A DNA stretch of 64,000 nucleotides from an uncultured Pseudomonadales bacterium (GTDB lineage Bacteria > Patescibacteriota > Microgenomatia > UBA1400 > PJMF01): assembly GCA_964393205.1 (NCBI GenBank), contig CAYMSV010000001.1:244581-308580 (forward strand), in the 5' to 3' direction. A model generated the notes under the pieces. It saw only the letters and a program-made list of their open reading frames with translations, made no database searches and was not told the origin of the DNA. The position numbers and the translations under genes were made by a program. Below are positions 31,374 through 51,134 of the stretch, in pieces; the stretch's first letter is position 1; every line of letters starts with the position of its first letter.

Positions 31374-31380
31374 GATTAAC

Positions 31381-31680
31381 TCAACGCAAAGCCACAGCGC
31401 TTGCTTTGCTTTTAACTACTAGCAGATTTTTTATGTCTTTAAAATCCTGATAGTTTTCTAGTTGTTGAATAGAAATTTCTTGAGCAATAGCTTGATCTAA
31501 TTTGCTTTCTCTAGAAAGTAATTCTTCTTGTTTTTGTTTGAGAATTTCTATATGTTGGCCATAAGCAATATTTTGACTAAGAGTGTAAGCGGTGCTGATT
31601 AATTGCAAGAAAACTACTAAGAAGAGAATTCTGTAATAATTTTTGAGCTTTTTTTTCATTGTTTTTCCTTTTTTATACAA
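31381..31680 (-). CDS. FtsL-like bitopic coiled-coil division protein (by position)
   Basis: 99 aa with an N-terminal TM helix and a coiled coil, between rsmH and ftsI. Confidence 0.5.
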   Translation of the reverse strand: MYKKGKTMKKKLKNYYRILFLVVFLQLISTAYTLSQNIAYGQHIEILKQKQEELLSRESKLDQAIAQEISIQQLENYQDFKDIKNLLVVKSKASAVALR

Positions 31681-32590: not shown

Positions 32591-33002
32591 AAGCCTTTTC
32601 AGCAATTGACTCAGCCTTTTTTTCCAGTTGATCAAGATAGAGATGGTAGTTTTCTTGATCCCATATTTCCAAACGATTAAGACTACCAACAATGACGACA
32701 GATTTTTTCAATTGGGCAAATTCGATCAAGTAATTGGGCAGTTTTACTCGACCATTGTCGTCAGGGATTATCTCACTAGCTTCGTTAGTCATTAATCTGA
32801 CTAGATCTCGATTGGCTTTTTTACTAAATCCGGCTTGATTAATTTTACTTAGCTCTGATTGAAAGTTTTCTTTTTTGAGTAAGAATAAGCAACCATCTAA
32901 ACCTCTGGTAACGATCCAAGATTTACTGCTACTGCGGAATTTTTTGGGTAAAGATATGCGACCTTTACTCTCTAAGTTATGATAATACTTGCCAATTAAC
33001 AT
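32577..33002 (-). CDS. mraZ: Transcriptional regulator MraZ
   Basis: MLIGKYYHNLESKGRISLPKKFR N-terminus; start taken at ATG 33002 (track TTG at 33023 is the alternative). Confidence 0.8.
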   Translation of the reverse strand: MLIGKYYHNLESKGRISLPKKFRSSSKSWIVTRGLDGCLFLLKKENFQSELSKINQAGFSKKANRDLVRLMTNEASEIIPDDNGRVKLPNYLIEFAQLKKSVVIVGSLNRLEIWDQENYHLYLDQLEKKAESIAEKAYVIE

Positions 33003-33177
33003 TATTATGAGCCTATTTACCAATTCCTACCACATATAACTATATATAAGAAAAACAAACTTGTAAATAGTAATTTGTTCATAAATTATTAGATGTAGGT
33101 GAAAAGCTTTTTAAAAGATAAAAAATATCACAAAAAACCCAGTAAACTGAGAATACAAGAACAATAAATCAGAAAAA

Positions 33178-35439: not shown

Positions 35440-36006
35440 CTAGTTTTGACTTTGGGTATTTAAAAAATCAAAGCTTTTCATCTTTTTTTCACTAATTTCA
35501 GCTACATAATTTTGAATACTTTGGTGTTTAGTGTCTTTAATATCTTGATAACCTAGAAGTTGTAATAATTGGTTGAGGAGTTTTTTAATTTTTGCAGCCT
35601 GATTGTCTTCACTTAAGACTAATTTTTCAATTTTTTTAGCTAATTCAAAACTACCCTCGTCAATAAAGTTTTCCACAAAGAGGCGATCAAAAATTTCTAA
35701 AATTTGTTGAATGTGGCTAATCTTTTTAAGAGCTAATTCTTGAGGAAGATTTTGATAAATTTGGCTAGTATCAAAAAGTAGACGACTTTGAGTGAGTAAA
35801 GGTAAACTTTTAGTTCTAATACAAAAAGCTTGAATGAGATTGCCCGGTTCGAGATTAGCTCTGTTAGAAGAATTGAGGCGGCGCGCCCCTTTAGCCAGTA
35901 CTACCAGTTTTCCTTGATCTTTAGTTAAGAGAGTCAGTAGGCGGTCGGTTTCACCCATAGCGCGCCGCTTAAGAACAATGGCGTGGCTTGAAAATGAGCG
36001 AGACAT
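35440..36006 (-). CDS. recO: DNA repair protein RecO (short form)
   Basis: N-terminal OB-fold sequence (HAIVLKRRAMGETDRLLTLLTKDQGKL); only 188 aa. Confidence 0.65.
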   Translation of the reverse strand: MSRSFSSHAIVLKRRAMGETDRLLTLLTKDQGKLVVLAKGARRLNSSNRANLEPGNLIQAFCIRTKSLPLLTQSRLLFDTSQIYQNLPQELALKKISHIQQILEIFDRLFVENFIDEGSFELAKKIEKLVLSEDNQAAKIKKLLNQLLQLLGYQDIKDTKHQSIQNYVAEISEKKMKSFDFLNTQSQN

Positions 36007-36009
36007 GGT

Positions 36010-38028
36010 TTAAAAAATCGTGGAATATTCTAGATCTTGATCCATTAAGAGTTCCTCTTGCCCACCAGTGACATCAATTAAAACTGGTACAGGATTAATG
36101 CCAGCTTGTTTCCAGAGTCGAAGATTGTAGTTTTCTTGATCTTGATAAGGTACTCGATAGTTCATTCTAATTCGAGCTAGTCCCAAGGGCTCTAATTTAA
36201 AGAAGCCGTCAACAACGGTGTAACCTTCTTCTTCATAGACACTAGCTTCATCTTCCAAACCCTGAATTTCAAGGAGCTCTGAGCCTTGGGGCAAATAGAT
36301 TCTAATCCAGTCATTAAGTGTTGCATTGAGACATAGTAGACCAGCTTCCAAATTACAATTATCTGCTGGAGCAGTATTTTTATAACTAATTTCTAAAGTA
36401 TTTTCAATAAAATTATCTTGAGGCGCACTGACACTAAGTTTAAGATCATAATCAATAAACAAATTAGATTTAGCCCCAGCGAGATTAGTATTAATGATCG
36501 CTAAGAAATCTTGATTTTGGCCAAATTGCCAGTCTTTAAAGCCCTGATTTAATTGATAGAGTCGACCAGCAGCATTAATTTTTTCGGCTGCTATTTGAGA
36601 ACTTTCATCTACAAAATACATTTGCAGGTGGCGGCCCTTGAGGCTGCTGATGCCCACAGTAATTAATTCTGGGAATTTAACTTTATCTAGTTCATAAGTT
36701 TTACTCAAAATAGTGCTCATTAGTGGCCCCAAAACTCCTTTACGATCTTCTCTTAAGTAAGGAGTGGGACGAGTGATAATTTCTGATAAAGCATAAACAA
36801 CTTGAGGGCAATCACAGCGTTTATCAACTTCAGCACTAAAAGTACCGTACCCTGGAACTTGAACAGGACCAATGACTTCCAGCAACCAGGTCAAAACTTG
36901 AGTGTCAACGGCAATGATGCCATCAATATCATCTGGCTCTCCAGGAACAGTTTGATAATTTTCATAAAAAGTCTCCATAGATTTTTTGAAATCTGGATAA
37001 ATATTCATGTCTCGCAAATTCCAATAACGTTCAGTGGTTAAATATTTGCCTAGTTCCTCTGGAATTGCTACATTTTTGCGAAATTTTTGATCTAACTCAT
37101 AGATGTCGCCTGATTTCTCAGGAATGACAGTGCCTTGATCAACCTGAATAATAGAATAAGCAGTTAAAAAGCCACCTGTAGGTCGCAATTCATTATCATT
37201 TTGAAAAAGAATTAAATATTTTTGAGCTTCTCTGGCTCCGGCCATTTTAGCTAGTTCAGCCAAGACTGGTTTGTAATCACTGAAACCATGACTAAAATTG
37301 CTAATTTGTTCTTGAGCATTCAGAATTTGACTGCGAATTTCCTGTTGAGCTAGTTGTTCCGGATATCGCTTAGCATTAATTTCTTGACTGAGGGCCTCAA
37401 TTTCTTGAAGCTTGAGTTCTATTTCATTGATTTCTGGTTGAATTTCTTCTAAAGTTTCCAGCACTAAAACTATACGGTCTTGAGTGGTTCCCCCCTCAAA
37501 ACTGCCTTCACCAGCAAAGCCAAGTAGATCGCTATAAGGCATTAAAGTATTAACAAGTTGGTCAGCTAAATCTAGGCTTTTATGGCCAATCAAAATAACT
37601 GTCTGCCCGTCTTGATAATAATTTCTCACAAAGGGGATGTATTGGTAAATTTTTAGTGCTTGATATTCTTGATCAATGTTTGTTAAGTTTTCTCTAAGAT
37701 CACTAATTTTTTCTGGTAAGGCTGGAAGATTTTGAGTTCTAACTAGGCCAGCGGTTTCCATAGCTAGAGCTTGGGTAGAATTACTCAGGGCCATGATTTT
37801 CTTGACCCGAAAGAAGGTGTAGCTAAAAAGAATGCTAAAGCTTAAGGCCAATATTAACAAGAAAATTAAGGCAATTTTTTGCCATTTTTTTAAGGCCAAG
37901 CGACTTTTTTTATTCATTTTATTCTTTTTACTTTTTTTGAAAAAAGACCAAAAAGGTTTTTTTTCAGGATTTTCTAAAGTTATTTGCTTTTCACCAAATA
38001 ATTGATCAACGCTAGAAAAATTTTCCAT
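36010..38028 (-). CDS. Large membrane-anchored extracytoplasmic protein (possibly DUF4012-like) co-transcribed with the glycan locus
   Basis: N-terminal TM helix, a coiled-coil segment, and conserved-looking NDNELRPTGGFLTAYS and CDCPQ motifs. Confidence 0.5.
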   Translation of the reverse strand: MENFSSVDQLFGEKQITLENPEKKPFWSFFKKSKKNKMNKKSRLALKKWQKIALIFLLILALSFSILFSYTFFRVKKIMALSNSTQALAMETAGLVRTQNLPALPEKISDLRENLTNIDQEYQALKIYQYIPFVRNYYQDGQTVILIGHKSLDLADQLVNTLMPYSDLLGFAGEGSFEGGTTQDRIVLVLETLEEIQPEINEIELKLQEIEALSQEINAKRYPEQLAQQEIRSQILNAQEQISNFSHGFSDYKPVLAELAKMAGAREAQKYLILFQNDNELRPTGGFLTAYSIIQVDQGTVIPEKSGDIYELDQKFRKNVAIPEELGKYLTTERYWNLRDMNIYPDFKKSMETFYENYQTVPGEPDDIDGIIAVDTQVLTWLLEVIGPVQVPGYGTFSAEVDKRCDCPQVVYALSEIITRPTPYLREDRKGVLGPLMSTILSKTYELDKVKFPELITVGISSLKGRHLQMYFVDESSQIAAEKINAAGRLYQLNQGFKDWQFGQNQDFLAIINTNLAGAKSNLFIDYDLKLSVSAPQDNFIENTLEISYKNTAPADNCNLEAGLLCLNATLNDWIRIYLPQGSELLEIQGLEDEASVYEEEGYTVVDGFFKLEPLGLARIRMNYRVPYQDQENYNLRLWKQAGINPVPVLIDVTGGQEELLMDQDLEYSTIF

Positions 38029-38047
38029 AGATTAATAGTATAGCAAA

Positions 38048-38674
38048 TTACCACTTAGAAAACATCGCCATTGGTGTTTTGAGTAAAATCAGCAGATCTT
38101 GGCGAATAGAGTTATTGTTAGCATATTGATAGTCAATTAGTGTGCGTTTTTTAAAAGGAATTTCATTGCGGCCACTAGTCTGCCAAGGACCGGTAATACC
38201 AGGCTTAACTGACAAAATACTTTTGACATATTTTTTAGTTTCTGGATATTTGCTTGTTTGTTCTTCTAGCTCTTTTTTGACATAAGCACGAGGGCCAACG
38301 ATACTCATTTCTCCTTTAAAAACATTGAATATCTGAGGAAATTCGTCAATAGTAAAGGCTCGTAAAAATCGACCAAGGCGAGTAATACGAGGATCATCTT
38401 TAGCGGCAATTTTCCAGTCATTGTTTTTGAATTTGTCTAATAAAATGTGATCTTTGCTGTGTAAAATTTCATCAGCATTTTGTACCATGCTACGAAATTT
38501 AAATAAATTAAATTCTTTGCCATTTTTACCAATTCGTCGATGAGAGAAAAAGATTGGCAGTCCCGAGTCAATCAAAATTAAAATAGGAATAATGATCCAA
38601 AACGGTAAGAATAAAATCAATAAAATACTGGCAACCATGATGTCTAGTAAACGTTTTTTAGCAGCGTAAGTCAT
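38048..38674 (-). CDS. Priming sugar transferase (WbaP/WcaJ C-terminal-domain type undecaprenyl-phosphate phosphoglycosyl transferase)
   Basis: One TM helix; bacterial sugar transferase motifs (FKFRSM, PGITGPWQ). Confidence 0.8.
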   Translation of the reverse strand: MTYAAKKRLLDIMVASILLILFLPFWIIIPILILIDSGLPIFFSHRRIGKNGKEFNLFKFRSMVQNADEILHSKDHILLDKFKNNDWKIAAKDDPRITRLGRFLRAFTIDEFPQIFNVFKGEMSIVGPRAYVKKELEEQTSKYPETKKYVKSILSVKPGITGPWQTSGRNEIPFKKRTLIDYQYANNNSIRQDLLILLKTPMAMFSKW

Positions 38675-38679
38675 TAGAT

Positions 38680-39786
38680 TTAGAGATATTTTTCTCTACC
38701 CTCTTCTTTTAATTGATTAACTAATTTTTTAACATCTTGACCATTGTCCTTGGGGCAAATCAATAAAATTTCTTCTGTATCAACTACAATTAGGTCTTTA
38801 ACACCATAAAGAGCTATTAAGCGATGATTACCATGAATTAAATTTCCGTAAGCTTTTTGAGTGAGGGTTTGAATTTCCCCACTTTCTCCCAGAATAACAT
38901 TGCCAGAATTGTCTTTTTTACCTAATTGATAAACCACTTTCCAATCGCCAACATCATTCCAACCGAAATCTCCAGGAATTAAAACCAAGTTGTCGGCCTT
39001 TTCACTAATAGCATAATCGATTGAGATGGCTTCTGCCTGCTCATAGACCTCTTCAAGAGCTTGATGAAATTCAGTAGATTTCAGTTTTTCTAAGTGTTTG
39101 GTAAGTTTGTGCATACTTGGCATGTGCTTGTCAAAACTTTTTTGAATTTCTTTGGCTGACCAAACGTACATGTTGGCATTCCAAAAATAGCGCCCAGTAG
39201 AAATGAAGGCAGCAGCGGTTGCTAACTTGGGTTTTTCAGTAAAGCTATCAACTTTGAAGAGGCTTAAGTCTCGATCTAATTTTTTAATTTCTTTACCAAC
39301 CTTGATGTAGCCAAAAGCACTAGTCGGATAAGTAGGGGTAATACCAACCGTAATTAGGTAATGATGTTTTTCAGCTGTTTCTACAGCCTTATTCATAACT
39401 CGATCAAACTCTTTGAGATTATTAACAATGTGGTCTGAGGCTGCATTAATAACTACGGCGTTTTTATCCTTGCTTTTGGCATAAAGAGCGCCAACTAGCA
39501 TGGCTAGAGCCGTATCTTTTTTACTTGGTTCAGCAATGATGTTTTCTTTAAGAACTTTAGGTAATTGTTTACTGACTTCCTGTACATATTTTTTATTAGT
39601 GACCACAATGACTTGAGACCAGTCAACCAAGCGATTAATTCTTTCAGCAGCAATTTGCATCATGCTTTGCTTGCCGGTTAATTTCAAGAATTGTTTGGGG
39701 GTGTTATCTCTAGATTTTGGCCAAAGTCTGGTACCACCACCACCAGCTAACAAAACGGCGTAAAGATGCTTGTTTTTATTCATCAA
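38680..39786 (-). CDS. Sugar-1-phosphate nucleotidyltransferase (mannose-1-phosphate guanylyltransferase-like)
   Basis: N-terminal LLAGGGGTRLWP. Confidence 0.75.
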   Translation of the reverse strand: MMNKNKHLYAVLLAGGGGTRLWPKSRDNTPKQFLKLTGKQSMMQIAAERINRLVDWSQVIVVTNKKYVQEVSKQLPKVLKENIIAEPSKKDTALAMLVGALYAKSKDKNAVVINAASDHIVNNLKEFDRVMNKAVETAEKHHYLITVGITPTYPTSAFGYIKVGKEIKKLDRDLSLFKVDSFTEKPKLATAAAFISTGRYFWNANMYVWSAKEIQKSFDKHMPSMHKLTKHLEKLKSTEFHQALEEVYEQAEAISIDYAISEKADNLVLIPGDFGWNDVGDWKVVYQLGKKDNSGNVILGESGEIQTLTQKAYGNLIHGNHRLIALYGVKDLIVVDTEEILLICPKDNGQDVKKLVNQLKEEGREKYL

Positions 39787-40990
39787 ATTTCTTTCTATAA
39801 GCTGCTTCTAATTGTCGATTAAATCTTCTCAAAAAACTAGTAGTATCATATTTTATAGCGTTTTTAGCTAAAATTTCCAGATCAAAATCTGTTTCTTCTA
39901 AAATTTTCATTTTTTGACAGAGTTCCTCTACATATTTTTCACTGTGTTCTTCCAGCATAATTTCTGGAAAATTCAGATGTAGAGAGTATTGGCCATCAGC
40001 TAGAACTTCACTAGCTCCAGCATGTTGGTGAATAAGCACTGGCAGCGAATGCAAACTGGCTTCAAGTCCTACGATGCCAAAATCATCTATACCGGGCATT
40101 AAAAGAGCTCGAGCATGTCCATAAAGTTGACTAAGTTGTTCATTATTAACTTGTTTTTGAAAAATAATTTGCTTAGAATTTTTTGGAAAATCTGCTCTTT
40201 GGCTTAAGAGTTTTTTAGCTAATTTTTTAAGTTGACGATAATCTGGACCATCTCCAACAATGATGAGTTGTCGGCCTAAACGCACGCAGGCTTTGATGGC
40301 TAAATCAATATTTTTATAAGGCACTAGACGACTCACTAATAAATAGTATTGGTTTTTTTGATGATTGGTGCTGGGATGAGCGGCTAGTAAAGCTTGAAAA
40401 ACATCTAGATCGACTGGTGGATAAATAACAGGATGGCTTTCTAGGTGGTAATATTTATGAATTCTGTTGGCTACTGCTTGAGAAATTGGCACAATTACAT
40501 CTGGTCGATGAATAGCCAATTGATCCCATTTTTTTAGATATTGAAGAGCTTTTTTTGATATATGTTTAATAATTGGCCAATTCAAAAAAGCTATTTTGTT
40601 CCAATAATTTTCCTGATAGTGATAAAGATAGCGAGGAGGTGTTAATAAATAACAGAAATGTAATTGGTCACTACGAGTAATTATCCCCTTAGCTTCAGCA
40701 CTGGTAATAGAAATAATGACATCATAATCTCCAAGATCCAGAGTCTCAAAAGCAAGAGGCATTAAGGGAGCTAGCAAGCGATGGTGATGTTTAGCTAGAG
40801 GAAATTTTTGCAAAAAACTAGTTTTGATTTTAAAAACTTTTGCCCATTTAGCTTTGCGTGGGTTGTAAACAGCAGTAAATAAATCGGCTTGTGGATAAAG
40901 TTTTTTGAGGGCTAGTAAAACTTTTTCTGCTCCACCAAAAGGGGTGTTAACTCGGTCATAGACAAGAGCGATTTTTTTATTGTTTAGCAT
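39776..40990 (-). CDS. Glycosyltransferase family 4 (GT-B)
   Basis: GT1/GT4 C-terminal domain. Start taken at ATG 40990, just after the upstream stop. Confidence 0.7.
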   Translation of the reverse strand: MLNNKKIALVYDRVNTPFGGAEKVLLALKKLYPQADLFTAVYNPRKAKWAKVFKIKTSFLQKFPLAKHHHRLLAPLMPLAFETLDLGDYDVIISITSAEAKGIITRSDQLHFCYLLTPPRYLYHYQENYWNKIAFLNWPIIKHISKKALQYLKKWDQLAIHRPDVIVPISQAVANRIHKYYHLESHPVIYPPVDLDVFQALLAAHPSTNHQKNQYYLLVSRLVPYKNIDLAIKACVRLGRQLIIVGDGPDYRQLKKLAKKLLSQRADFPKNSKQIIFQKQVNNEQLSQLYGHARALLMPGIDDFGIVGLEASLHSLPVLIHQHAGASEVLADGQYSLHLNFPEIMLEEHSEKYVEELCQKMKILEETDFDLEILAKNAIKYDTTSFLRRFNRQLEAAYRKKFDE

Positions 40991-40991
40991 T

Positions 40992-42161
40992 TTAGTTATT
41001 TTTAAGGGCAGACACATACACTCGATAAGTTAATTGAGCCAAATCCTGCCAACGATACTTTTTGGCAAATTTAAGATTTTTGGAGATGATGTCTTGCCTC
41101 TTGCTAAATTTTAATTTTTCTAAAGCAGCCAAAAAACTTTCAGGATCTTTTGGATCAAAATAAAAAGCGCTGTCTTGATAAATTTCTTTAAAGATAGGGA
41201 TGTTGCTGGCCAAAACTGCTGTGCCGCTAGCCATAGCTTCAATGCCAGTTAAGCCAAAGCCCTCAGATAGAGAAGGTTGAACGAGAGCCATCGAATTTTG
41301 ATAAATTTTGATAAGTTTTTCGTCTGGCACATAACCCATAAATTTAACTTGACGTTTAACTTTATAGCGAGCCACTAATTTACGCATTTGGGTTTGAAAA
41401 ACATTGCGTGAGCCCACGATCAACAACTGATACTTAGGTAATTTTTTTAAGGCTTTGATGACTAAAACTAAGTTTTTATGTGGATAAAGAGAGCCGGTAT
41501 ATACTAATTGTTTTTTAATTCGCTTTTTAGCTAGATCTTTTTGAGAAATTAACTGTAAATTTTTTTGGTAAGCGCTAGCTAGTCCTTCTCTGGTGACCAC
41601 AATTTTTTCTTGACTATGGCGATAATATTTACTAACCGTTTCTTTAATTGTTTGAGCAGGAACTAAAATAAATTTAGCTTTTTTAATTGCTTGTTTGACT
41701 ACCACTAAATAAGCTAGATACTTAAGATAATAAACTGGTGGTTTAAGGGTGGTCACTCCCATACCTTTTTGTTGGTGCCAGAGTAAATCATGAATAGTAA
41801 TGACCAGCTTTTGTCGATAAAAAACTGGGATGTTGAAATGCGGAACATGTAGGAGATCCAATTTTGCTTGACGATAAACCTTGGGTAAAGTTAATTGTTC
41901 CCTCAAACTGTAGTGGCGAATATCGCTCAAAATAATTTCCAGTTGATACTTTGAAGGTTTTTTATAAATATCTTCACCCAAAACTGAACGGGCTTGATTA
42001 AGATCTCTGAAAAACAAAACAAAGGTAAAAAAGTTTTTATCTTGATTGATTCTAATGATTTCTCTGACAAGATTTTCGCTATAACGACCAATGCCAGCAT
42101 GTTCACTGCCTGCCAAACGGCAGTCAATGCCTAAGCGATACTTTTTTTTCTTTGCCATCAT
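40992..42161 (-). CDS. Glycosyltransferase family 4 (GT-B)
   Basis: EX7E-type motif region SEGFGLTGIEAMASG. Confidence 0.75.
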   Translation of the reverse strand: MMAKKKKYRLGIDCRLAGSEHAGIGRYSENLVREIIRINQDKNFFTFVLFFRDLNQARSVLGEDIYKKPSKYQLEIILSDIRHYSLREQLTLPKVYRQAKLDLLHVPHFNIPVFYRQKLVITIHDLLWHQQKGMGVTTLKPPVYYLKYLAYLVVVKQAIKKAKFILVPAQTIKETVSKYYRHSQEKIVVTREGLASAYQKNLQLISQKDLAKKRIKKQLVYTGSLYPHKNLVLVIKALKKLPKYQLLIVGSRNVFQTQMRKLVARYKVKRQVKFMGYVPDEKLIKIYQNSMALVQPSLSEGFGLTGIEAMASGTAVLASNIPIFKEIYQDSAFYFDPKDPESFLAALEKLKFSKRQDIISKNLKFAKKYRWQDLAQLTYRVYVSALKNN

Positions 42162-42176
42162 TTTTAATTTATCTTT

Positions 42177-43055
42177 CTATCGACCATCTCGTTTGACGAA
42201 AATATATGAGCGCAGTAAACGTCGTAGTAATTTTGGGTAACGAGGAGCGTAATATTTATCATAGTAAGTTAACATTGCATCATAAAAGAAAGCATGGGTT
42301 TTTTTGGCAGTTTTTTTATTAACACTTTTAATGCCCGATTTATATTTATGATGAACTATAGTGACTTGTGGATGAAAGATAATTTGATAACCAGCGTCAC
42401 GAAAGCGTCGACACCAGTCTAAATCCTCACCATACATAAAAAAAGTTTCATCTAACAGGCCAACTTTTTTCATAGCCTTTTGACGAACCATCATGGCTGC
42501 TCCAGAAATAGCATCAACTTGATGAATGACGTCTAGGTTTAGATGACCCAAATGATATTGAGCAAAAAATTTAGAGTTGGGGAAAAATTTTTCTAAGCCA
42601 ATAAAATAGCTAAAAGCAGCCCAAGGGTGTGGTTCACCGCGATGGCTGGCCGGATCTAGCTCGCCATTGCTTAATTCTAGACGAGGGCCAAGGACAGCCA
42701 CTTTGGGGTTTTTGTCTAAATATTTAATTAAAAGGTCTAAATTACTTTTTTCTTCTAAAAATTCTGTATCACTATTAAGTAACATCACATAGCGAGCCTG
42801 ACTTTGGCGCAGTGCCACATTGTTGCCAAAAGCAAAACCACCATTGCGCCCTGACTCTATAACTTTCACCCACTTAAAATTCTTTTTCAAAAAACTCACA
42901 GAATCGTCTTGGCTATCGTTATCAACCACAACCACTTCGACTTTAAATTTTGTGTGTTTGAGATAGTTGTCTTTAATGGTAGGTAGTAACTTTTTGAGCC
43001 AAAAAAGACCGTTGTAGTTGAGGATAATAATACTTAAATCTAATTTTTTTGCCAT
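42177..43055 (-). CDS. Glycosyltransferase family 2
   Basis: LSIIILNYNG...VVVVDNDSQDDS GT2 N-terminus. Confidence 0.75.
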   Translation of the reverse strand: MAKKLDLSIIILNYNGLFWLKKLLPTIKDNYLKHTKFKVEVVVVDNDSQDDSVSFLKKNFKWVKVIESGRNGGFAFGNNVALRQSQARYVMLLNSDTEFLEEKSNLDLLIKYLDKNPKVAVLGPRLELSNGELDPASHRGEPHPWAAFSYFIGLEKFFPNSKFFAQYHLGHLNLDVIHQVDAISGAAMMVRQKAMKKVGLLDETFFMYGEDLDWCRRFRDAGYQIIFHPQVTIVHHKYKSGIKSVNKKTAKKTHAFFYDAMLTYYDKYYAPRYPKLLRRLLRSYIFVKRDGR

Positions 43056-43057
43056 AT

Positions 43058-44257
43058 TTATTTCTTTATTCTACCGATTTTTTGGTAAATTGCATCGAGT
43101 TTTTGAGAAATTGATTGCCAATCATAATGGTCTTTAACAAATTTTTTACCATTGCTTGAGAGTTTATCCCACAATTTCTGATCAGTCAAAACTTGAACAG
43201 TGAATTTAGCTAGTTCTTCGGCATCGTTACTAATTAAAACATCTTTGCCGTGTTCAACTTCTAGACCTTCAACAGCAATTTTACTGGCAACTACTGGTGT
43301 GGAACAAGCCATCGCTTCCAAGATCTTGTAACGAGTGCCCTTGCCGCTAAAAACAGGAGCTAGCAGCAAGTCTGCGCTCTTAAAAGCATAGCGAATATCT
43401 TCAACTTGACCAGCGACAGTAATTTGTGGATCTCTGAGGCCGTAATTAAGCACCTTTTGACTGGGAGCATTACCGACAATTTGGAGGTGAACATTGGCTA
43501 GTTTCTTTTTTACCAAAGGCCAAACTTTTTCCACTAAGAATTCAACTGCTTCTCGATTGGGCAACCATTTAAAAGTCCCAACCGACAGAATAGTTGGTTT
43601 AGTTGTTTTTTTTCTAGCTATTTGATCAAACCAGCTATTGTCTACCCCATTAGCTACGACAGCGATTTTGTCAGCTCTGCCCATTTGTTGAGCAATAAAA
43701 TTTTTATCTTCTTCGCTCATGACAATTAGTTGGTCAGCTTGTTGCCAGTAATGTTTTTCCCAGTTGCGAATTTTCTCAACATCGATGTTGAGAATTGGCC
43801 TTAAGAAAAGTGGGGCTTTTTTGGCATAATTTTCATAACCCAAATATTCAATAGTTTGTTCAACCAAGATACTAGGAATTTTTAGCTTTGGTAAGTGAGA
43901 CATCATATAAAAAGTCTCAGCATGAATGAGGTCGTAATTGCTGCTGGCTAGCTCTTCTTTAATCGCGCCAGTAACAGTTAGTGACTGATTGCGAATTACC
44001 AAAAAAGGATAACTAGAAAAGGCGGTCTTGAAAATATTTTTGAGAGTAAAAGGTTTTTTACTGCGTTTAAAAACTCGAACCTTGTGACAATATTTTTCAA
44101 GCTCACCAATATATTCTTTTTCTTGTTCATCTTTAATGAGAGCAAAGAGCGTAATTTGGTGTTTTTTGGCTAGTTTTTTCAGTAAATTGTAGGTGCGAAT
44201 TTGACCTCCAGACAAGAGTGGATATGGCAAATAGGGAGTCAACATTAAGATTTTCAT
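43058..44257 (-). CDS. Glycosyltransferase family 4 (GT-B)
   Basis: N-terminal Glyco_trans_4-like domain and a C-terminal GT1 domain. Confidence 0.7.
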   Translation of the reverse strand: MKILMLTPYLPYPLLSGGQIRTYNLLKKLAKKHQITLFALIKDEQEKEYIGELEKYCHKVRVFKRSKKPFTLKNIFKTAFSSYPFLVIRNQSLTVTGAIKEELASSNYDLIHAETFYMMSHLPKLKIPSILVEQTIEYLGYENYAKKAPLFLRPILNIDVEKIRNWEKHYWQQADQLIVMSEEDKNFIAQQMGRADKIAVVANGVDNSWFDQIARKKTTKPTILSVGTFKWLPNREAVEFLVEKVWPLVKKKLANVHLQIVGNAPSQKVLNYGLRDPQITVAGQVEDIRYAFKSADLLLAPVFSGKGTRYKILEAMACSTPVVASKIAVEGLEVEHGKDVLISNDAEELAKFTVQVLTDQKLWDKLSSNGKKFVKDHYDWQSISQKLDAIYQKIGRIKK

Positions 44258-45711
44258 GGATTATTTTTTTCTTTAGTTAAATCTAATATTAAATAACGAT
44301 CGGTTTTGTCAATGCTTTGATACTTTTCTTCGAGTTGACGACGTTCTTTATCATCACTAGTACTAACATAGATAGTGGCACCAGCCTGGATTTTTTCTTC
44401 AATGTTATGACCAATGGGCCAGCCACGCCGATTAGTTTGAAATAAAAAGGCGGTATCTCCCATGGCTGGAGCAATAACTAAAGCATCAGCTGGAGTTAAG
44501 CGATCAATAGCTTGGCCAGCTTCAATATATTCCCAATTATTGACATTAAAGAAGCCAGCAACTTGTCTGGCTGACAAAGACCAAGCGCTAAACAAAAGTA
44601 GAGCAAGAAAAATTTTCCCTAAAAGAGCTTTTTTGAATTTTTCTTGGATAATTAAACTGCCTCTCGCTACACTAACGGCAACAATCGGAATCATTAGGTT
44701 CTGATAATAATCATGTTGAATGTTGCCACTAGCGAGCACTATAAAATAAAAAACAATGCTCAGCCACCAACTAGCATAAATTAAAGTCTTTTTATTAATT
44801 TGCCATAGATTAGCAAGAAGCAAGATTGTGCCAGTAAAACCAAGAACAAGTTTAATCAGGCGCTCATAGAATAACCAACGCCACCAAGCTGGTTTAAGGC
44901 GAATATTATTTTTATTAAACAACCAATCGGAAACAGGAATACCTGTGGGAAAATTTTCAATCCAGTCTCGCCATAACCAAAAAGGAATGAAGGCTAAAAT
45001 AGGAAAAAGATAAATGCTTAGTTTTCTAAAAAGCTTGTTGCCTAAATAATGCCAAGCAATAGCTAAATAAATTGGGGCTAAAAAGAGGACAAAAGGTTTG
45101 AGCAAAGCAGCTAAAGCTAAAGAGATAAGGCTGAGCAAATAGTGACTTATTCCTTTGGCTTTTTTTTGACAAAAAACTGCCCACTGCCAAAGTGATAACA
45201 AGCTCAAGGCCAACATAAAAGGTTCGGGCAAAATAGCTCGGCCATAAAAGACCGCATAAGGCAAAATTGCGTAAACAAAGGCACTAAATAGAGCTAGTTT
45301 TTCATCATCAAAAACCTTAATTAAGCGATAAAGTGAATAAATGGCTAGCAGTGAAGCCAGAATAGAAAAAGCTCGACTGGTCATCACCAAATCAAGATTG
45401 AGACCTAGACTTTGACTAAACAATAAAAAATGAGCAATTAAACCATTGATTAGAGGAAATTCTACCATTCGATAACCCTCTGGGTTAGCTAAACCAGACT
45501 GAATATCAGAAAGGTCTTGATATTGAGGTCTCAACCAATCGACTTGCCCACTTTTAACATATTCTCTAGTGACAGAAGCAGTATCAGCTTGACGAAAACT
45601 GTGCCAATCAGCTAAGGGATAGTGAAAGCGATAGAGGCGCAAGACAAGCGCCAATAATAAAATAGCAAGAATTAACCAGCTATTTTTTTGCTTTTTTGCT
45701 TTTTTTATCAT
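44254..45711 (-). CDS. GT-C fold membrane glycosyltransferase (ArnT/PMT-like, GT39/GT83-type)
   Basis: About 11 TM helices; first periplasmic loop HSFRQADTASV is typical of polyprenyl-phosphate-sugar-dependent GT-C enzymes. Confidence 0.6.
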   Translation of the reverse strand: MIKKAKKQKNSWLILAILLLALVLRLYRFHYPLADWHSFRQADTASVTREYVKSGQVDWLRPQYQDLSDIQSGLANPEGYRMVEFPLINGLIAHFLLFSQSLGLNLDLVMTSRAFSILASLLAIYSLYRLIKVFDDEKLALFSAFVYAILPYAVFYGRAILPEPFMLALSLLSLWQWAVFCQKKAKGISHYLLSLISLALAALLKPFVLFLAPIYLAIAWHYLGNKLFRKLSIYLFPILAFIPFWLWRDWIENFPTGIPVSDWLFNKNNIRLKPAWWRWLFYERLIKLVLGFTGTILLLANLWQINKKTLIYASWWLSIVFYFIVLASGNIQHDYYQNLMIPIVAVSVARGSLIIQEKFKKALLGKIFLALLLFSAWSLSARQVAGFFNVNNWEYIEAGQAIDRLTPADALVIAPAMGDTAFLFQTNRRGWPIGHNIEEKIQAGATIYVSTSDDKERRQLEEKYQSIDKTDRYLILDLTKEKNNP

Positions 45712-47341
45712 GATAATGTTGATGATTGATGGCGAGTATTGCTCCAGCTAGGGCCCAATAAATGAAGGCTACTTTGGAAGAGGCAAAGACATCAATGTAA
45801 AGAGCATTGACCAAGAGGCCAATGGTAGCTGCCAAAAAGGCTAAATTAAGGTTTTTGAGCCAAGGACTGGCAGATTTATTTTTCTTGATTTGATAAAAGA
45901 TTACCCAAAAAATACCATAGAAACTAATAAAACCTAGCAAACCAGTTTCACCCAAGGTACGCAAGAAATTATTATCAGTGCTTTCGGCTTCAGTGAAGTG
46001 ATAAAAATCTTTTTTATTGAGGGTGGCATAGGCACTACCCACGACAGGATTGGCAACAAAACCATCGATGGCATTGGGCCAAAGCTCATCGAGGCGAATA
46101 GCCAAGGACAAACCATATTTCATGGCATTGGGTGACCAAGTGCGCTCTTTTTCTACCTCAACCATTTCGCCAAATTCATTCTCCTCTTTTACTATGTCTG
46201 GGACATCGACATACACATCAACCGGTCTAGTGGTGGTGGGTCGCTCATCAGTTTTGACTAAGGTGTTTTCATCGACAGCAATGCCATCATCCGGCGGTCG
46301 ACCTCGGCGTTGAATATAAGTGGCTAACTTTTCATATTTTTCTTCAAAAATTTCCATTTGAGTTTCGCTAAATTCTTCAGCATCTTCATAAACTAGATAA
46401 GCTTCTGGATAAGCTCGCAAGATTTGCACAAAACGGTCTTGCATATCGCCACCAAAGACGAAAATCATTAGGATTAATAAAATGCTAAAAGCAGTACCTC
46501 GACGCAGAAGTGCCCATAAGCGTTTAATAAATTTTTGCTCTTGCCAAGCTAACATAATGATAGCGGCAGCCATGGCAGCAAGATAAGCTGCAAAAGAAAT
46601 TCGTGAAGCGGAAACAACCAAAAGCCATAGACCAAGCAAATGCAAAACTTTAAATAAACCCTTACCCCATTTGTTTTGGCTTTTCATACCAAGAACATAA
46701 AAAATTGGCAAAACCATGACCAAAAAGGCAGCCAAATCATAATGACCGGCAAAGGTAGATTGGACTCGAGCGTGTTCGGTTAAATATAAAACCATACCCT
46801 TGCTAAATTCTCGATTCATGGTCGAAAAAACTGGCCAATAAAGATATTTTTGACCATACCCGTAAACTGTGACTAAAACCAAAGTGAGGGCTAAGCTGGC
46901 AAGGACTAGGCGCACATCTTTTTCTGAGCGAACGCTAGAGTAAAGAATAAATAGCAAAGAAAAATATTCAATATAGCGCAGCAGGTGTAAAAATGATTTA
47001 GCAAAGTGAATGCTTTCCAAAGGAATGGTGCGAATGATAAATAAACCTGAGATAATCGATAAAAAAGCAATTGCAATGTAGGCAAAAATCCATTTAGCAG
47101 CTGGATTTTGCCAGTCAACTTTTTTGCGCTTTACTTGAATTAGATAAAACAGAGACACTAGGGCTACCAAGATATCTTCTAAGCGAACCCGGACAATGTA
47201 GCCAGGAATGGCCTCAAAAAGTGGCACTTTTGGATAGAGGGGAATAAAAATTAACAGAAATAAGCTAGCAAATAACATTAAGCGATTGTCAACAAAATTC
47301 AGTAATTTTTTAGCAAAAGTTGATTTTTTAGCCATATTCAA
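45680..47341 (-). CDS. O-antigen ligase/polymerase family (Wzy_C) membrane protein with a large periplasmic loop
   Basis: SASRISFAAYL and DNNFLRTLGETGLLG motifs. Confidence 0.6.
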   Translation of the reverse strand: MNMAKKSTFAKKLLNFVDNRLMLFASLFLLIFIPLYPKVPLFEAIPGYIVRVRLEDILVALVSLFYLIQVKRKKVDWQNPAAKWIFAYIAIAFLSIISGLFIIRTIPLESIHFAKSFLHLLRYIEYFSLLFILYSSVRSEKDVRLVLASLALTLVLVTVYGYGQKYLYWPVFSTMNREFSKGMVLYLTEHARVQSTFAGHYDLAAFLVMVLPIFYVLGMKSQNKWGKGLFKVLHLLGLWLLVVSASRISFAAYLAAMAAAIIMLAWQEQKFIKRLWALLRRGTAFSILLILMIFVFGGDMQDRFVQILRAYPEAYLVYEDAEEFSETQMEIFEEKYEKLATYIQRRGRPPDDGIAVDENTLVKTDERPTTTRPVDVYVDVPDIVKEENEFGEMVEVEKERTWSPNAMKYGLSLAIRLDELWPNAIDGFVANPVVGSAYATLNKKDFYHFTEAESTDNNFLRTLGETGLLGFISFYGIFWVIFYQIKKNKSASPWLKNLNLAFLAATIGLLVNALYIDVFASSKVAFIYWALAGAILAINHQHYHDKKSKKAKK

Positions 47342-47344
47342 AAT

Positions 47345-48358
47345 TCATTTAATAATTGCTAAAGCTTCACGATAGATTGTCGCTTGTCTCTCTTTACCAG
47401 TCAAGCGATAAATTAAATAACGCCAGAATGCACCAGCTTTAAGAATCAAGCGCAGTAGCGATTGTTGCCAGGCTGGAAAATGCTTTTTCCAAATATATAA
47501 ATAACTTTTAAACTCACCAAGAATAGCATTTTTACTAGAAGAGCTAGCGCTACCCAAGTGAACAATTTTGGCGCCGGGATGAATGGCAATGTCAAAATGA
47601 TGGTTTTTAGCTCGTAGACAAAATTCTTGATCCTCACCGTACATAAAGATATTTTTGTCTAGATAGCCAATGCGATCGATGACGCTTTTTTTAATCAGCA
47701 TGGCTGTACCAGCTACCCAATCTTTATGGATGAGAGCTGTTTTTTGATTTTTTCGATCAAGAAAGAGTTTTTGTAAGGGGCGTTGATTACGACCTGTGTG
47801 TTGAGTAGAAGGCAAAAAGCGACCCAGCACCGGAATGTCATCTAAAAAAAACATTTGGTTAAAAACGGCACAGAGTGATAATTGTGAACCACCCTGAGGT
47901 TGAAGGGAGCCATCAGGATTGAGTAAAGTGGGGCTTAAAATACCCAGATAATCAACGATTTTTTCACTATCTTGAGTGGTAGCAGTGGCTAGTTGATCAG
48001 GATGATTAATAAAGGTTTTGACTAAAGTTTCTAGAGTGCCCTGTTGGACAATGGTGTCAGAGTTAAGCAACATCAAATATTCACCCTTGGCATTTTTGAG
48101 CGCTTGGTTATTAGCTTTAGCAAAGCCCAAGTTTTGTTTATTGGCAATGAGTTGGTAATTGCGAAATTTTGCCTTGTTAAAAAACTTCTTCACGGCATCT
48201 AAGCTGCCATCTTGGCTATTGTTATCAACCACATAGATTTCGCTATCTTTTTTTAGTAAGTCGCTACTTTTGATATCAGCTAACAAGCTCTCCAATGTCT
48301 GGAGGGTTAATTCTTGAGTGTTATAAGAAACAACAATGACGGATAAAAGCTTTTGCAT
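47345..48358 (-). CDS. Glycosyltransferase family 2
   Basis: LSVIVVSYN...YVVDNNSQDGS GT2 N-terminus. Confidence 0.75.
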   Translation of the reverse strand: MQKLLSVIVVSYNTQELTLQTLESLLADIKSSDLLKKDSEIYVVDNNSQDGSLDAVKKFFNKAKFRNYQLIANKQNLGFAKANNQALKNAKGEYLMLLNSDTIVQQGTLETLVKTFINHPDQLATATTQDSEKIVDYLGILSPTLLNPDGSLQPQGGSQLSLCAVFNQMFFLDDIPVLGRFLPSTQHTGRNQRPLQKLFLDRKNQKTALIHKDWVAGTAMLIKKSVIDRIGYLDKNIFMYGEDQEFCLRAKNHHFDIAIHPGAKIVHLGSASSSSKNAILGEFKSYLYIWKKHFPAWQQSLLRLILKAGAFWRYLIYRLTGKERQATIYREALAIIK

Positions 48359-48369
48359 AATTTTTTAAC

Positions 48370-49011
48370 TTATTGAAATAAGCGGGGGCGTCCTAGGCGA
48401 TAATTGCTAGCAGTTTGTGGTCGTTGATCAATAACTTTAGCTGGCACGCCAGCCACAATGTCATAGGGAGCCACATCTTTGGTGACAATAGCGCCAGCAG
48501 CAATCACTGCTCCCTCACCAATCTTAACACCAGGCATAATAATAGCTCTGGGGCCAATAAAAACGTAGTCGCCAATAGTGACCTTTTCTTCAATAGTAGT
48601 CATTTCGCTAGATTTAACATCGTGCTCACTAGTCCAAATCATTACTTCTGAGGCAATATCGACGTGATTGCCAATTTCTAGTCCGCCTCGAGAATTTTCC
48701 AGTTGACGGCGGCCATCCAGCGTGGCTTTTTCACCAATGAGAGTGCCAGCACCAATCTTAATTCCCGATGGATAATAAATTCTAGCCATCATGTGAATAG
48801 TGGAGCCTTTGCCAATTTTTATGCCAGAGAGTCGATAAAAGAATCTTCGCCAACAATGAAAAGGTAAAAAACCCACTCCCCACCAGAGGAAACCAGTCCA
48901 TATTTCTAAAAGAATAGTTTTCACTCGTCTTTTGGCTTTAGAGCGAATTTGACTAGAATTTAAGACACGTCCATGTTTATCTGTAATAGGCATGAGACTA
49001 GTATACAACAC
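48370..49011 (-). CDS. Hexapeptide-repeat (LbH) sugar O-acetyltransferase, membrane-anchored
   Basis: N-terminal TM helix; left-handed beta-helix repeats [13 protein letters not shown]. Confidence 0.7.
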
Positions 49012-49040
49012 AGAGCGAAAACTGTTGAGGTGCGAGTGAT

Positions 49041-50072
49041 TTAGTTCTTTTCTTTAGGCGGGGTGATACCAAAATATTGATAAGCCTTATGAGAGACAAT
49101 CCGTCCTTTAGGGGTACGGCGAATGAAACCAATCTGTAATAAATAGGGTTCCAAAACTTCTTCAATGGTACCGGCATCTTCGCTGATACTGGCAGAAAGA
49201 GTTTTAAGCCCCACCGCTTTACCATCATGTTTTTTAATCAAAGCCATCAGTAGGCGGCGATCGTTTTCATCTAAACCCAGCTCATCGATTTCAAAAATTT
49301 CCAGGGCTTTAGTAACGAGGGCCGAATCAATACTGGCTTTTTCCAAAACTTGAGCAAAATCACGCACGCGCTTAAGTAGTTTAAGGGCAATTCTTGGTGT
49401 GCCTCGGGAGCGTTCAGCCAAAGAGAGGCGAGCGGGACGATCAATAGTGCAGTGTAATTTATCACTGGCATATTTAATAATTTTTTCTAGTTCCTGTGGC
49501 TGATAAAATTCCAAGCGATGAATTAGGCCAAAACGATCACGAAATGGCCCGGTCAGCAAACCAAAGCGAGTGGTAGCTCCGACCAGGGTAAATTTTGCCA
49601 AATCTAAGCGCACAGTGCGAGCGCTGGGACCTTTGCCAATGACAATATCTAGAGCAAAATCTTCCATAGCTGGATAAAGAGTTTCTTCAACGGCTTTGGG
49701 TAAGCGATGAATTTCATCAATAAATAAAATATCTCCATCTTCTAAATTAGTTAAAATAGCAGCCAAATCACTGGTTTTGGAGAGGGCGGTGCCTGAGGTA
49801 ATGCGAAAATTAACGCCCATTTCTTTAGCGATTAATTGAGCCAAGGTCGTCTTACCCAATCCTGGGGGGCCGTAAAAAAGGACATGATCGATGGCTTCTT
49901 TTCTTTGAGCAGCTGCATCAATGGCAATTTTTAGAGATTTTTTAATATTTTCTTGACCCAAGAACTCCTGCCAATTACTGGCACGCAGCGAGGTAAAAAG
50001 TAATTCTTCCTCATCATCCTTGATGAGACGAGGATCAATATCAGTTTTTGTCATAATTTTTTCCACTAGCAA
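49041..50072 (-). CDS. ruvB: Holliday junction branch-migration ATPase RuvB
   Basis: Walker [13 protein letters not shown]+ domain. Confidence 0.95.
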
Positions 50073-50637
50073 TTTTTAGAGCCTGTTTGATGGCCACTGC
50101 CAAATCCAAGCTTTCAATATCAATTTTTTCCAAGGCAAAATTAATGCTTTGATCATCAAAACCCAAGCCCAAAAGTGCATCATAAACATCTTGTTTTTTT
50201 GGTGAGAGCGTGGCGAGGTTAAGTTCTTTGAGCCCACCTAGTTTACTCTTTAATTCAATAATGATTTTTTGGGCTAGTTTTTTGCCGACTCGTGGTATAG
50301 CAGTGAAAAAACTTAAATTAGCTTCTTGTACAGCACTAATTAGTTTTTCTGCTCCAGCATTAACGATGGCTAGAGCAGTTTTAGGCCCAACCCCAGAAAC
50401 GGTCAAAACTAGTTGAAAGAGAGCCAATTCTTTTTCTTGGGCAAAACCATAAAGTTCTAATCGATCTTCTTTGACGTGAGTAAAGATATGAGCTTCGAGC
50501 TCTTCGCCCTTTAATTCATTTTGACTAGCACTTTGCAAAAAGTTGCTAGTAGCCTGAACCTGATAACCAACTCCCCCACAAATAATAATCAGATAGTTTT
50601 TTTTGACAGTAACTTGACCTTTGAGATAAGCAATCAT
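50041..50637 (-). CDS. ruvA: Holliday junction DNA helicase subunit RuvA
   Basis: MIAYLKGQV...GVGYQVQ OB fold plus helix-hairpin-helix. Confidence 0.9.
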   Translation of the reverse strand: MIAYLKGQVTVKKNYLIIICGGVGYQVQATSNFLQSASQNELKGEELEAHIFTHVKEDRLELYGFAQEKELALFQLVLTVSGVGPKTALAIVNAGAEKLISAVQEANLSFFTAIPRVGKKLAQKIIIELKSKLGGLKELNLATLSPKKQDVYDALLGLGFDDQSINFALEKIDIESLDLAVAIKQALKIASGKNYDKN

Positions 50638-51134
50638 AAATTTTTTAACTTTCTGGCAGCTTGATGGCAGATGAGTAGAGCTAGCGCATCAAAAGTATCA
50701 TCTAGGATCTCTTCTGTGCCTTTTTGATCAATTGCTAACTCCATCCGTACCATCTTTTCTACAGCTTTTTTGTCCGCTCGTCCATAGCCAGTTACAGCTT
50801 GCTTGATTTGTAGTGGCGTATATTGGCTAATTTTTAAACCAGCACTGAGCAAGGTAGCCATAATTAAACCCCGAGCCTCACTGACTTTCATGGCTGTACT
50901 CTGATTTTTAAACCAAAAGAGGGTTTCAATGGCGGCTTCTTGGGGCTGAAGCTGATCTACGATGTCTTTTAATTCGCTCAAAATTTGTTGATAGCGATCC
51001 TCAATTTCTCCTTGTCGATCAGTAGTGATGCAGCCATGGCCAAAAATCTGCCAACCACTTTTCAATTGTTGAGCCACTGCCCAACCCAGGCGATCATAAC
51101 CTGGATCAATGCCAATAATAATCGGATTAGGCAT
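50634..51134 (-). CDS. ruvC: Crossover junction endodeoxyribonuclease RuvC
   Basis: IIIGIDPGYDRLGWAV catalytic N-terminus. Start taken at ATG 51134, two nt after the upstream stop. Confidence 0.85.
   Translation of the reverse strand: MPNPIIIGIDPGYDRLGWAVAQQLKSGWQIFGHGCITTDRQGEIEDRYQQILSELKDIVDQLQPQEAAIETLFWFKNQSTAMKVSEARGLIMATLLSAGLKISQYTPLQIKQAVTGYGRADKKAVEKMVRMELAIDQKGTEEILDDTFDALALLICHQAARKLKNL

Follow-up and report, generated by a model that had tools for sequence, protein, structure and literature searches.

A Gene Block Conserved Across Microgenomates That May Build a Lineage-Wide Envelope Glycan

A collinear block of about 20 kb recurs across the Microgenomates part of the Candidate Phyla Radiation (CPR) and may build one lineage-wide envelope glycan, a reading to which we give a probability of roughly 45%. 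We studied the block in a 64,000-nucleotide stretch of contig CAYMSV010000001.1 (the window; all coordinates are window positions), where it covers approximately 35440–54915 on the minus strand and can be extended to 58020 by an epimerase gene and a Wzx flippase gene. The glycan would probably contain mannose, be O-acetylated and be built on a polyprenyl-phosphate carrier. A conserved "common antigen" or a secondary cell-wall polymer is a closer comparison for it than a strain-variable O-antigen or capsule. An earlier note on this DNA had described part of the block, 36010–49011, as a 13-kb array of eleven glycan genes encoding a complete repeat-unit pathway.

Gene Order Across Microgenomates

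Two sets of loci were compared with the window. The genome set consists of 80 species-level Patescibacteria (Microgenomates) loci, each picked for encoding a GT-C relative (GT, glycosyltransferase), and their open reading frames (ORFs) were matched to the window proteins with BLASTP. The metagenome set consists of 80 loci seeded on the 494-aa GT-C2 protein. In nearly all genome loci the same order recurs on one strand: GT-C2, GT4e, GT4d, ruvC, ruvA, ruvB, LbH (an acetyltransferase), GT2b, Wzy_C, GT-C1, GT4c, GT2a, GT4b, GT4a, ManC, PGT (phosphoglycosyl transferase), DUF4012 and recO. Of the 54 species-level genome loci with sufficient flank, 50 have the whole part from GT-C1 to DUF4012 in the same order, and at least 32 of 48 have all of the part from GT-C2 to GT-C1. 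The metagenome loci show the same order, plus the epimerase in nearly all of them. For a relative with a 52%-identical GT-C, separate gene calls and precomputed Pfam matches gave this order as well. Synteny had been named in the earlier note as a check on the array, and its genes proved to be strongly linked in relatives. With its order preserved in most related genomes, the array is more than a chance arrangement.

Homologs of GT-C, Wzy_C and DUF4012 number more than 1000 each, and the named ones belong to Pacebacteria, Woesebacteria, Beckwithbacteria and "Patescibacteria group", that is, to the Microgenomates part of the CPR. The GT-C1 protein itself is found identical, with the same neighbors, on 23 metagenome contigs. 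Many contigs in loci L007–L086 that are evidently metagenome-assembled genomes of Patescibacteria carry the title "uncultured Pseudomonadales bacterium", while L085 is titled "Vitreimonas sp." and L037 "Limisphaerales bacterium"; these records are probably mislabeled or mis-binned.

The genes are tightly packed in relatives, with median junctions of −4 to +32 nt in the block and −4 to +9 nt inside the core. None of 103 loci has Wzy_C and GT-C1 more than 300 nt apart. In the window, the co-directional run far exceeds 13 kb, as all junctions from 55611 down to 33178 are ≤44 nt.

Collinearity does not need functional unity, and the block might be a frozen stretch of a streamlined genome whose glycan genes serve at least two pathways, possibly split into a GT-C2/GT4/GT4 part and an LbH-to-DUF4012 part. 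The unrelated ruvCAB and recO genes are indeed equally collinear, and the ruvB–LbH junction is the one most often interrupted (gap >300 nt in 21 of 102 loci). Three loci (L024, L076, and L084) have the core from GT2b to PGT/DUF4012 without the adjoining LbH, ruv genes and upstream part. The core is intact in L047, L076, and L084 despite the broken upstream link, and in L024 it is intact from GT2b up to the contig end, within DUF4012. Such a frozen stretch nevertheless seems improbable, as 14–16 of the approximately 20 genes share one functional class, synteny fades just outside the block (metagenome loci) and neighboring core genes overlap by about 4 nt in nearly all loci.

Some relatives carry additional genes at the junctions. 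The gap between GT2a and GT4b exceeds 300 nt in 39 of 66 relatives and holds an ORF of ∼100–170 aa in the 38 loci examined (L026–L039 and others; e.g., L168:13540–13980). This small protein has two hydrophobic segments and an acidic-then-basic tail, and is absent from the window and close relatives; for the L168 copy the precomputed gene table lists no Pfam match. Speculatively, it might be analogous to the small activator proteins of GT2 synthases. The gap between LbH and GT2b exceeds 300 nt in about 17 of 102 relatives, and the window has no such insert. In L168 the insert (6286–7245) is an EamA transporter gene of the DMT superfamily, possibly for a lipid-linked sugar or a nucleotide sugar; comparable gaps of ∼400–980 nt occur in L014, L017, L019, L022, L023, L062, L068, L085, L100 and others.

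Conservation and Inheritance

Median identities, computed over 63 distant loci, are 66.7% for LbH, 65.5% for the PGT, 63.4% for GT4c (the best-conserved glycosyltransferase of the block) and 61.7% for ManC. The reference medians in the same loci are 66.6% for RuvB and 42–49% for RuvA, RuvC, and RecO. Identity in the glycan genes tracks that in RuvB (rho 0.40–0.74), to about the same degree as in RuvA, RuvC, and RecO. The G+C content of the block is that of the surrounding window, in contrast to a low-GC island (21–32%) at 58–64 kb. A repeat search gave no flanking repeats and no mobile-element marks at the block. Rfam found three tRNAs only in the window, none of them at the block borders, and no regulatory RNA.

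The shared gene order, the RuvB-level conservation and the co-varying divergence together point to a vertically inherited, lineage-wide envelope glycan locus with one fixed product, rather than to a hypervariable O-antigen or capsule island. By default, such a gene set would be read as a strain-variable Wzx/Wzy O-antigen, capsule or exopolysaccharide island, and a PGT, a set of GT2 and GT4 enzymes, an acetyltransferase, Wzy_C and a nearby Wzx are its typical content. Here this reading is poorly supported and very improbable, since the same genes stand in the same order in dozens of species at 40–70% protein identity and diverge along with housekeeping genes, with normal base composition and no sign of mobility. 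The separate island at 58–64 kb, by contrast, looks like a strain-variable glycan locus.

Gene Content of the Array

Gene families in the block were assigned from Pfam and NCBIfam profile matches on the window ORFs. The ORF listing gives exactly 11 ORFs between 36010 and 49011, all on the minus strand and with junctions of −32 to +19 nt, which bears out the packed and overlapping arrangement noted earlier. The first gene in transcription order encodes an LbH hexapeptide acetyltransferase (48370–49011; Hexapep, 59 bits), which is WcaF-like by a match to the family NF007797 (99 bits, below the cut-off). It is followed by GT2b (47345–48358; Glycos_transf_2, 90.8 bits), a Wzy_C/WaaL-fold polytopic membrane protein of about 551 aa (45680–47341; Wzy_C, 28.2 bits against a cut-off of 31.7) and the 485-aa, PMT_2/ArnT-like GT-C1 (44254–45711; PMT_2, 43.6 bits against a cut-off of 26.1). 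Next come four glycosyltransferases: GT4c (43058–44257; Glyco_trans_1_4, 94 bits; stp1-like TIGR03087, 222 bits, below the cut-off), the soluble GT2a (42177–43055; Glycos_transf_2, 62 bits; no transmembrane (TM) helix), GT4b (40992–42161; Glycos_transf_1, 112 bits) and GT4a (39776–41017; Glycos_transf_1, 68.5 bits). The array ends with a ManC-like mannose-1-phosphate guanylyltransferase (38680–39786; NTP_transferase and ManC_GMP_beta-helix), a small monotopic PGT of 208 aa (38048–38674; Bac_transf, 202 bits) and a 672-aa DUF4012 protein with one N-terminal TM helix (36010–38028; Pfam DUF4012). The ManC protein has no phosphomannose isomerase domain, and its TIGR01479 match covers positions 2–352 of 467.

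The gene families proposed in the earlier note all agree with these matches, and the profile check that it had suggested for each ORF was consistent with the glycosyltransferase assignments. Its statement that no flippase lies within 36010–49011 is also correct, and both Wzx genes of the window were found where it placed them. What did not stand is that the 13 kb hold a "complete" pathway, since the flippase is absent inside and the conserved unit extends upstream past ruvCAB. Of the proposed repeat-unit pathway, the PGT and the glycosyltransferase set are present, but the Wzy_C protein may be a polymerase or a ligase, and Wzz or any other polysaccharide co-polymerase (PCP) was not found in the window.

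Weak "GT4-conflict" Pfam matches could have suggested a defense system, but generic GT4 models score much higher and this was dropped. A scan for promoters and terminators over 33–52.9 kb was uninformative on operon structure, as promoter-like counts equaled those of shuffled sequences and terminator-like sites fell inside ORFs.

The Priming Enzyme

The PGT is closest to WbaP in its catalytic part. Among Protein Data Bank (PDB) sequences it matches WbaP (E = 8e-40) and PglC (E = 1e-25), and the Asp-Glu dyad in its "TIDEFPQ" motif aligns with "SLDELPQ" of WbaP. The alignment is restricted to positions 256–446 of the WbaP/EPS_sugtrans models (the C-terminal ∼190) and to residues 278–467 or 332–520 of the WbaP chains. 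The one hydrophobic segment of the protein spans residues 17–35 and contains a Pro. A single predicted re-entrant N-terminal helix together with the catalytic dyad places it in the monotopic PGT superfamily. Large WbaP enzymes of ∼450–530 aa have an N-terminal four-helix membrane region and an accessory domain, and the PGT has neither. The "WbaP-type" label used earlier thus holds for the catalytic domain, but not for the N-terminal ∼275 residues of WbaP, which are absent. Judged by its architecture, the enzyme is a small, PglC-size PGT with only the catalytic domain being WbaP-like. In the exopolysaccharide locus of Bifidobacterium longum a DUF4012 gene adjoins the priming transferase gene (PMC5412050).

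The GT-C Enzymes

GT-C1 has more than 1200 homologs, at least seven TM helices and a C-terminal soluble domain. The HSFRQADTA loop reported in the earlier note is found at residues 37–45, and W36, H37, R40, Q41, D43, T44, and A45 are invariant in 27 homologs. The 494-aa protein encoded at 53431–54915 on the minus strand (GT-C2), upstream of the array, has at least six TM helices, and its window copy gave no Pfam or NCBIfam match. Its orthologs share an invariant "SFWLDEAAQ" first loop, with D23 and E24 invariant in "FWLDEAAQ", and one ortholog carries a weak PMT_2 match. When the ortholog profile was compared with the GT-C1 profile by hhalign, the two matched with 96.3% probability (E = 1.7e-9) and the first-loop motifs aligned. 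The acidic first-loop residue of GT-C/ArnT-like enzymes is accordingly seen in both GT-C1 (D43) and GT-C2, and by this profile similarity we assign the 494-aa protein as the second GT-C of the block. Searches of PDB sequences with the GT-C1, Wzy_C and GT-C2 proteins or profiles gave no usable matches.

Directly upstream of GT-C2 lies GT2c (54934–55611, minus strand; 225 aa; Glycos_transf_2, 72.7 bits), which resembles polyprenyl-phosphate-sugar synthases. Its best NCBIfam matches are AglJ, PpgS, and dolichyl-phosphate hexose transferase, all below their cut-offs, and it is a candidate donor synthase for the GT-C enzymes.

ManC, five GT4s, two GT-Cs and the polyprenyl-phosphate-sugar-synthase-like GT2 of this genome would also suit a lipoglycan like the mycobacterial phosphatidylinositol mannosides, lipomannan (LM) and lipoarabinomannan (LAM), in which GT4s use GDP-mannose inside the cell and GT-Cs extend a mannan outside from polyprenyl-phosphate-mannose. 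The core PGT and the Wzy_C/WaaL-fold protein imply an undecaprenyl-pyrophosphate (Und-PP)-linked intermediate rather than a glycolipid primer, and the block has no enzymes for phosphatidylinositol or another glycolipid anchor. We therefore regard a lipoglycan as a rather remote alternative to a glycan built on Und-PP.

The Wzy_C and DUF4012 Proteins

Nearly all listed homologs of the Wzy_C protein carry precomputed PF04932 matches. The protein has a WaaL-type fold, with a large extracytoplasmic loop at about residues 297–466. A comparison of its profile with E. coli WaaL by hhalign gave no significant match. When STDNNFLRTLGETGLLG was aligned by eye with HLHNEIIEAGSLKGLMG, the invariant D456 fell at the position of the WaaL His, which we take to be the catalytic H337 in the last large periplasmic loop of the E. 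coli enzyme. Residues 452–470 (ESTDNNFLRTLGETGLLG) resemble the WaaL/PglL motif "HNxxLxxxxExG" with D456 replacing the His. As the profile match to WaaL is not significant, the His-to-Asp point rests on the by-eye alignment. SEDS polymerases rely on an Asp that lies in a similar loop.

Second copies or altered forms of the Wzy_C gene occur in a few relatives. In L104, L111, L128, L135, L163, and L165 a second Wzy_C paralog (35–44% identity) lies just upstream of GT-C2 or the epimerase. In one 889-aa protein (P0319, a Logan contig; one occurrence) the GT2b ortholog (residues 3–330) is joined to the Wzy_C ortholog (339–871). This could be a genuine fusion, or the stop codon between the two genes, only 3 nt apart, may have been lost.

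The DUF4012 protein was modeled with a pLDDT of 79.8. The model has a TM anchor (residues 52–70), a helical region of ∼210 residues (48–262), an α/β domain (∼265–500) that resembles the LytR-CpsA-Psr (LCP) fold, and a C-terminal β-sandwich. It thus shows the LCP arrangement of an α/β fold behind an N-terminal membrane anchor. Foldseek with this model returned four LCP entries (E = 2–4e-3, probability 1.0, 236–244 columns). The best local hhalign match pairs IDGIIAVDTQVLTWLLEVIGPVQV of DUF4012 with the IDKYVTVDFDGFKDVINEVGGIDV element of LCP; it is not significant, and it falls on a β-α-β unit that was judged equivalent by eye. Against PDB sequences the DUF4012 profile gave coiled-coil noise only and no LCP chain. 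Invariant residues of DUF4012 are D278, E280, R282, R339, D340, D428, and R429. The domain family comprises 7,204 clusters (50% identity) at E ≤ 1e-3, found in CPR and Gram-positive lineages, and is listed among the CPR-enriched families (PMC6744442).

A fold shared with WaaL is also what one would expect if the block served the general O-glycosylation of proteins. The Wzy_C protein would then transfer the lipid-linked oligosaccharide en bloc to S-layer, pilin or other surface proteins, as O-oligosaccharyltransferases of the PglL/WsaB type do, and the GT-Cs would be protein O-mannosyltransferases. Neisseria has O-oligosaccharyltransferases with a Wzy_C domain, and the slg loci of Geobacillus pair one with a WbaP-like initiating enzyme. 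This is the main rival to a wall or surface polysaccharide. It fits with a window in which no chain-length regulator was found, with 5–7 glycosyltransferases that suit a defined oligosaccharide, with GT-C1 belonging to the PMT_2 family next to a ManC, and with strongly conserved glycan genes, which a general glycosylation system would be expected to have. We still consider it unlikely, as the His of the WaaL/PglL motif seems to be an invariant Asp (in the by-eye alignment), the DUF4012 protein with its LCP-like fold would have no obvious role, and no gene for a target protein is linked to the block.

Borders of the Block and Window Context

Upstream of LbH lie ruvB, ruvA, and ruvC for Holliday-junction resolution (49041–51134, minus strand; Pfam RuvB_N, RuvA_N, and RuvC). 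These genes overlap their neighbors in the glycan block by 4–32 nt and keep this place in most relatives; a functional reason for their location is not apparent. They are followed, still on the minus strand, by GT4d (51127–52320; Glycos_transf_1, 88.6 bits) and GT4e (52317–53456; Glycos_transf_1, 96.5 bits), both also assigned by synteny, and by GT-C2.

Beyond GT2c, a gene for an NAD-dependent sugar-nucleotide epimerase/dehydratase is found on the plus strand (55672–56718; Epimerase and GDP_Man_Dehyd). The epimerase adjoins GT-C2 in nearly all long metagenome loci, usually in divergent orientation. The upstream edge is formed by a candidate Wzx-type (MOP) flippase on the minus strand (56719–58020) with at least nine TM helices. 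Its Polysacc_synt match of 27.4 bits is just below the gathering score, and it aligns over its full length by BLASTP with the other Wzx of the window (E = 1e-6 over 417 aa), which is encoded at 11418–12635 and matches Polysacc_synt_3 with E = 1e-59. Of 45 long metagenome loci, about 20 have a Wzx homolog upstream of the block, and in 18 of these the homolog is on the strand of the block.

At the downstream end, recO (35440–36006, minus strand; RecO_N) is a conserved neighbor that ends the collinear block; in 46 loci it comes next after DUF4012, at a median distance of 8.5 nt. On the 3′ side of recO lie a class II aminoacyl-tRNA synthetase gene and then mraZ-mraW-ftsI, and the rest of the window includes murB-murA-mraY-ftsW-murG-ftsA-ftsZ. 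The nearby peptidoglycan and division genes fit with a walled cell. These genes (13381–33023) are arranged on two strands: murB-murA-mraY-ftsW-murG-(250-aa unknown)-ftsA-ftsZ is on the plus strand, and mraZ-mraW-ftsI, which comes directly after the glycan block, is on the minus strand. The two groups are separated by ileS, a second SEDS gene and parB.

Two further glycan loci are present in the window. A small one at 9533–12635 on the minus strand encodes a Wzy_C-like protein (372 aa; 25.4 bits, below the cut-off), a weak GT2 and the clear MOP/Wzx flippase. The other is the glycosyltransferase island at 58056–63924 on the plus strand, where the G+C content drops from 32 to 21%. Its predicted products are a TIG-domain protein, a GT2, a GT4, a further GT2 and a 631-aa protein without Pfam match, together with a polysialyltransferase-like ORF on the minus strand.

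Proposed Pathway

On our reading of the block as the locus of one envelope glycan, the PGT, placed by its family and dyad, would load a presumed sugar-1-phosphate onto undecaprenyl phosphate, and ManC would provide GDP-mannose. Five cytoplasmic GT2 and GT4 enzymes, probably together with GT4d and GT4e, would lengthen the lipid-linked oligosaccharide, in a presumed order and with presumed sugars, and the acetyltransferase could O-acetylate it, as suggested by its WcaF-like family. The Wzx at the upstream edge, placed in the pathway by its synteny, may carry the glycan outward. Outside, the WaaL-fold Wzy_C protein would either polymerize the unit or transfer it en bloc, and GT-C1 and GT-C2 may add sugars from polyprenyl-phosphate-sugar donors on the outer face, with GT2c as the candidate synthase of the donors. 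In the weakest step, DUF4012 would hand the finished glycan to an acceptor, most likely the peptidoglycan wall. That DUF4012 is a ligase which joins an Und-PP-linked glycan to peptidoglycan or another acceptor, as part of an essential and lineage-defining wall glycopolymer of Microgenomates, is a more specific proposal, which we regard as doubtful.

Several observations weigh against a single envelope glycan pathway of this kind. The genome loci were selected on the presence of a GT-C, so that the counts above refer to carriers and the share of Microgenomates without the block lies outside them. Since ruvCAB and recO are as collinear as the glycan genes, synteny alone is no proof of one pathway. 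The Wzy_C protein scores below the gathering threshold of PF04932, and its sequence and predicted fold suit a polymerase and a ligase equally. Wzz, GNVR, and CpsC/D matches are absent from the window ORFs of at least 120 aa (three short antisense nested ORFs were left out), and the Pfam scans of the window gave no match to canonical LCP (PF03816). The link between DUF4012 and LCP is at the level of the fold only, with an hhalign probability of 0.8%, or 2.4% with an 82-sequence domain alignment, and the catalytic Arg/Asp set of LCP could not be mapped onto DUF4012. The flippase lies outside the block and is syntenic in less than half of the long loci, and GT2c keeps its position in close relatives only (L007, for example). 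Finally, the glycan block is known here from its genes alone, through sequence and predicted structure.

Comparison With Known Systems

The block resembles Wzx/Wzy pathways in its PGT, cytoplasmic GT2/GT4 set, acetyltransferase, nearby candidate MOP/Wzx flippase and Wzy_C-superfamily protein. Enterobacterial common antigen (ECA) is an example of a lineage-conserved Wzx/Wzy system, and as in ECA the gene cluster of the block is conserved lineage-wide. Unlike these systems, the block has no Wzz/PCP, its flippase lies outside the core, its core includes GT-Cs and DUF4012, and ruvCAB are found inside it. Its Wzy_C protein is also only a putative polymerase.

The logic of the proposed pathway parallels that of Gram-positive wall polysaccharides, for which GT-Cs using polyprenyl-phosphate sugars, Wzx flippases and LCP-mediated ligation to peptidoglycan are established (PMC9574508). 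The rhamnose-rich wall polysaccharides of lactococci and streptococci combine lipid-linked synthesis, Wzx, polyprenyl-phosphate-dependent GT-Cs and LCP attachment, and are an essential wall component and not a facultative capsule (PMC9574508). In contrast to them, the block has no rml genes, rhamnan ABC transporter, canonical LCP or GtrA. It has a Bac_transf PGT for priming, where the rhamnose-rich pathways have WecA/GacO, and additionally a WaaL-fold protein. The side chains of the rhamnose-rich polysaccharides are strain-variable, whereas the Microgenomates block is invariant.

A regular-expression search over all fetched loci found no canonical LCP protein. Compared with LCP enzymes such as Cps2A, TagTUV, and LcpA, DUF4012 shows neither a PF03816 match nor significant profile–profile similarity, its conservation of the pyrophosphate-binding Arg/Asp set is not demonstrable, and its ∼210-residue helical region and C-terminal β-sandwich are absent from those enzymes. 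The Wzy_C protein differs from WaaL/PglL in its sub-threshold Pfam score and in the apparent invariant Asp for the motif His, and a monoderm-like CPR cell has no lipid A-core.

Three- and four-component systems of extracytoplasmic glycosylation consist of a GT2 polyprenyl-phosphate-sugar synthase, a flippase and a GT-C (PMC9574508). GT-Cs with an adjacent AglJ/PpgS-like GT2 in the window, and an EamA transporter inside the block of some relatives, are similar to this arrangement. Unlike those systems, the block lacks a GtrA-family flippase, its GT2 synthase is syntenic in close relatives only, and its GT-Cs sit in a much larger Und-PP-type pathway.

The type of pathway is known, and full-text literature searches gave no description of this conserved block. 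New are its lineage-wide invariance, the combination of two GT-Cs with a WaaL-fold protein, the presence of DUF4012 in the place expected for a co-polymerase or ligase, and the embedded ruvCAB genes.

Significance

The envelope composition of CPR/Patescibacteria is largely unknown because almost none have been cultured. CPR genomes are probably only about 1 Mb in size, so that a block of approximately 20 kb takes up a considerable part of them, and many species have preserved it gene for gene, with enzymes as conserved as RuvB. One invariant glycan of the surface or wall, to which this points, might be structurally necessary, mark the lineage for capture with lectins or antibodies, or act as a receptor in host–symbiont or phage contact. 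The results also suggest functions, open to testing, for DUF4012 and an unannotated GT-C family. If the proposed role of DUF4012 is true, it would represent a second, so far unrecognized, LCP-fold family of glycopolymer ligases.

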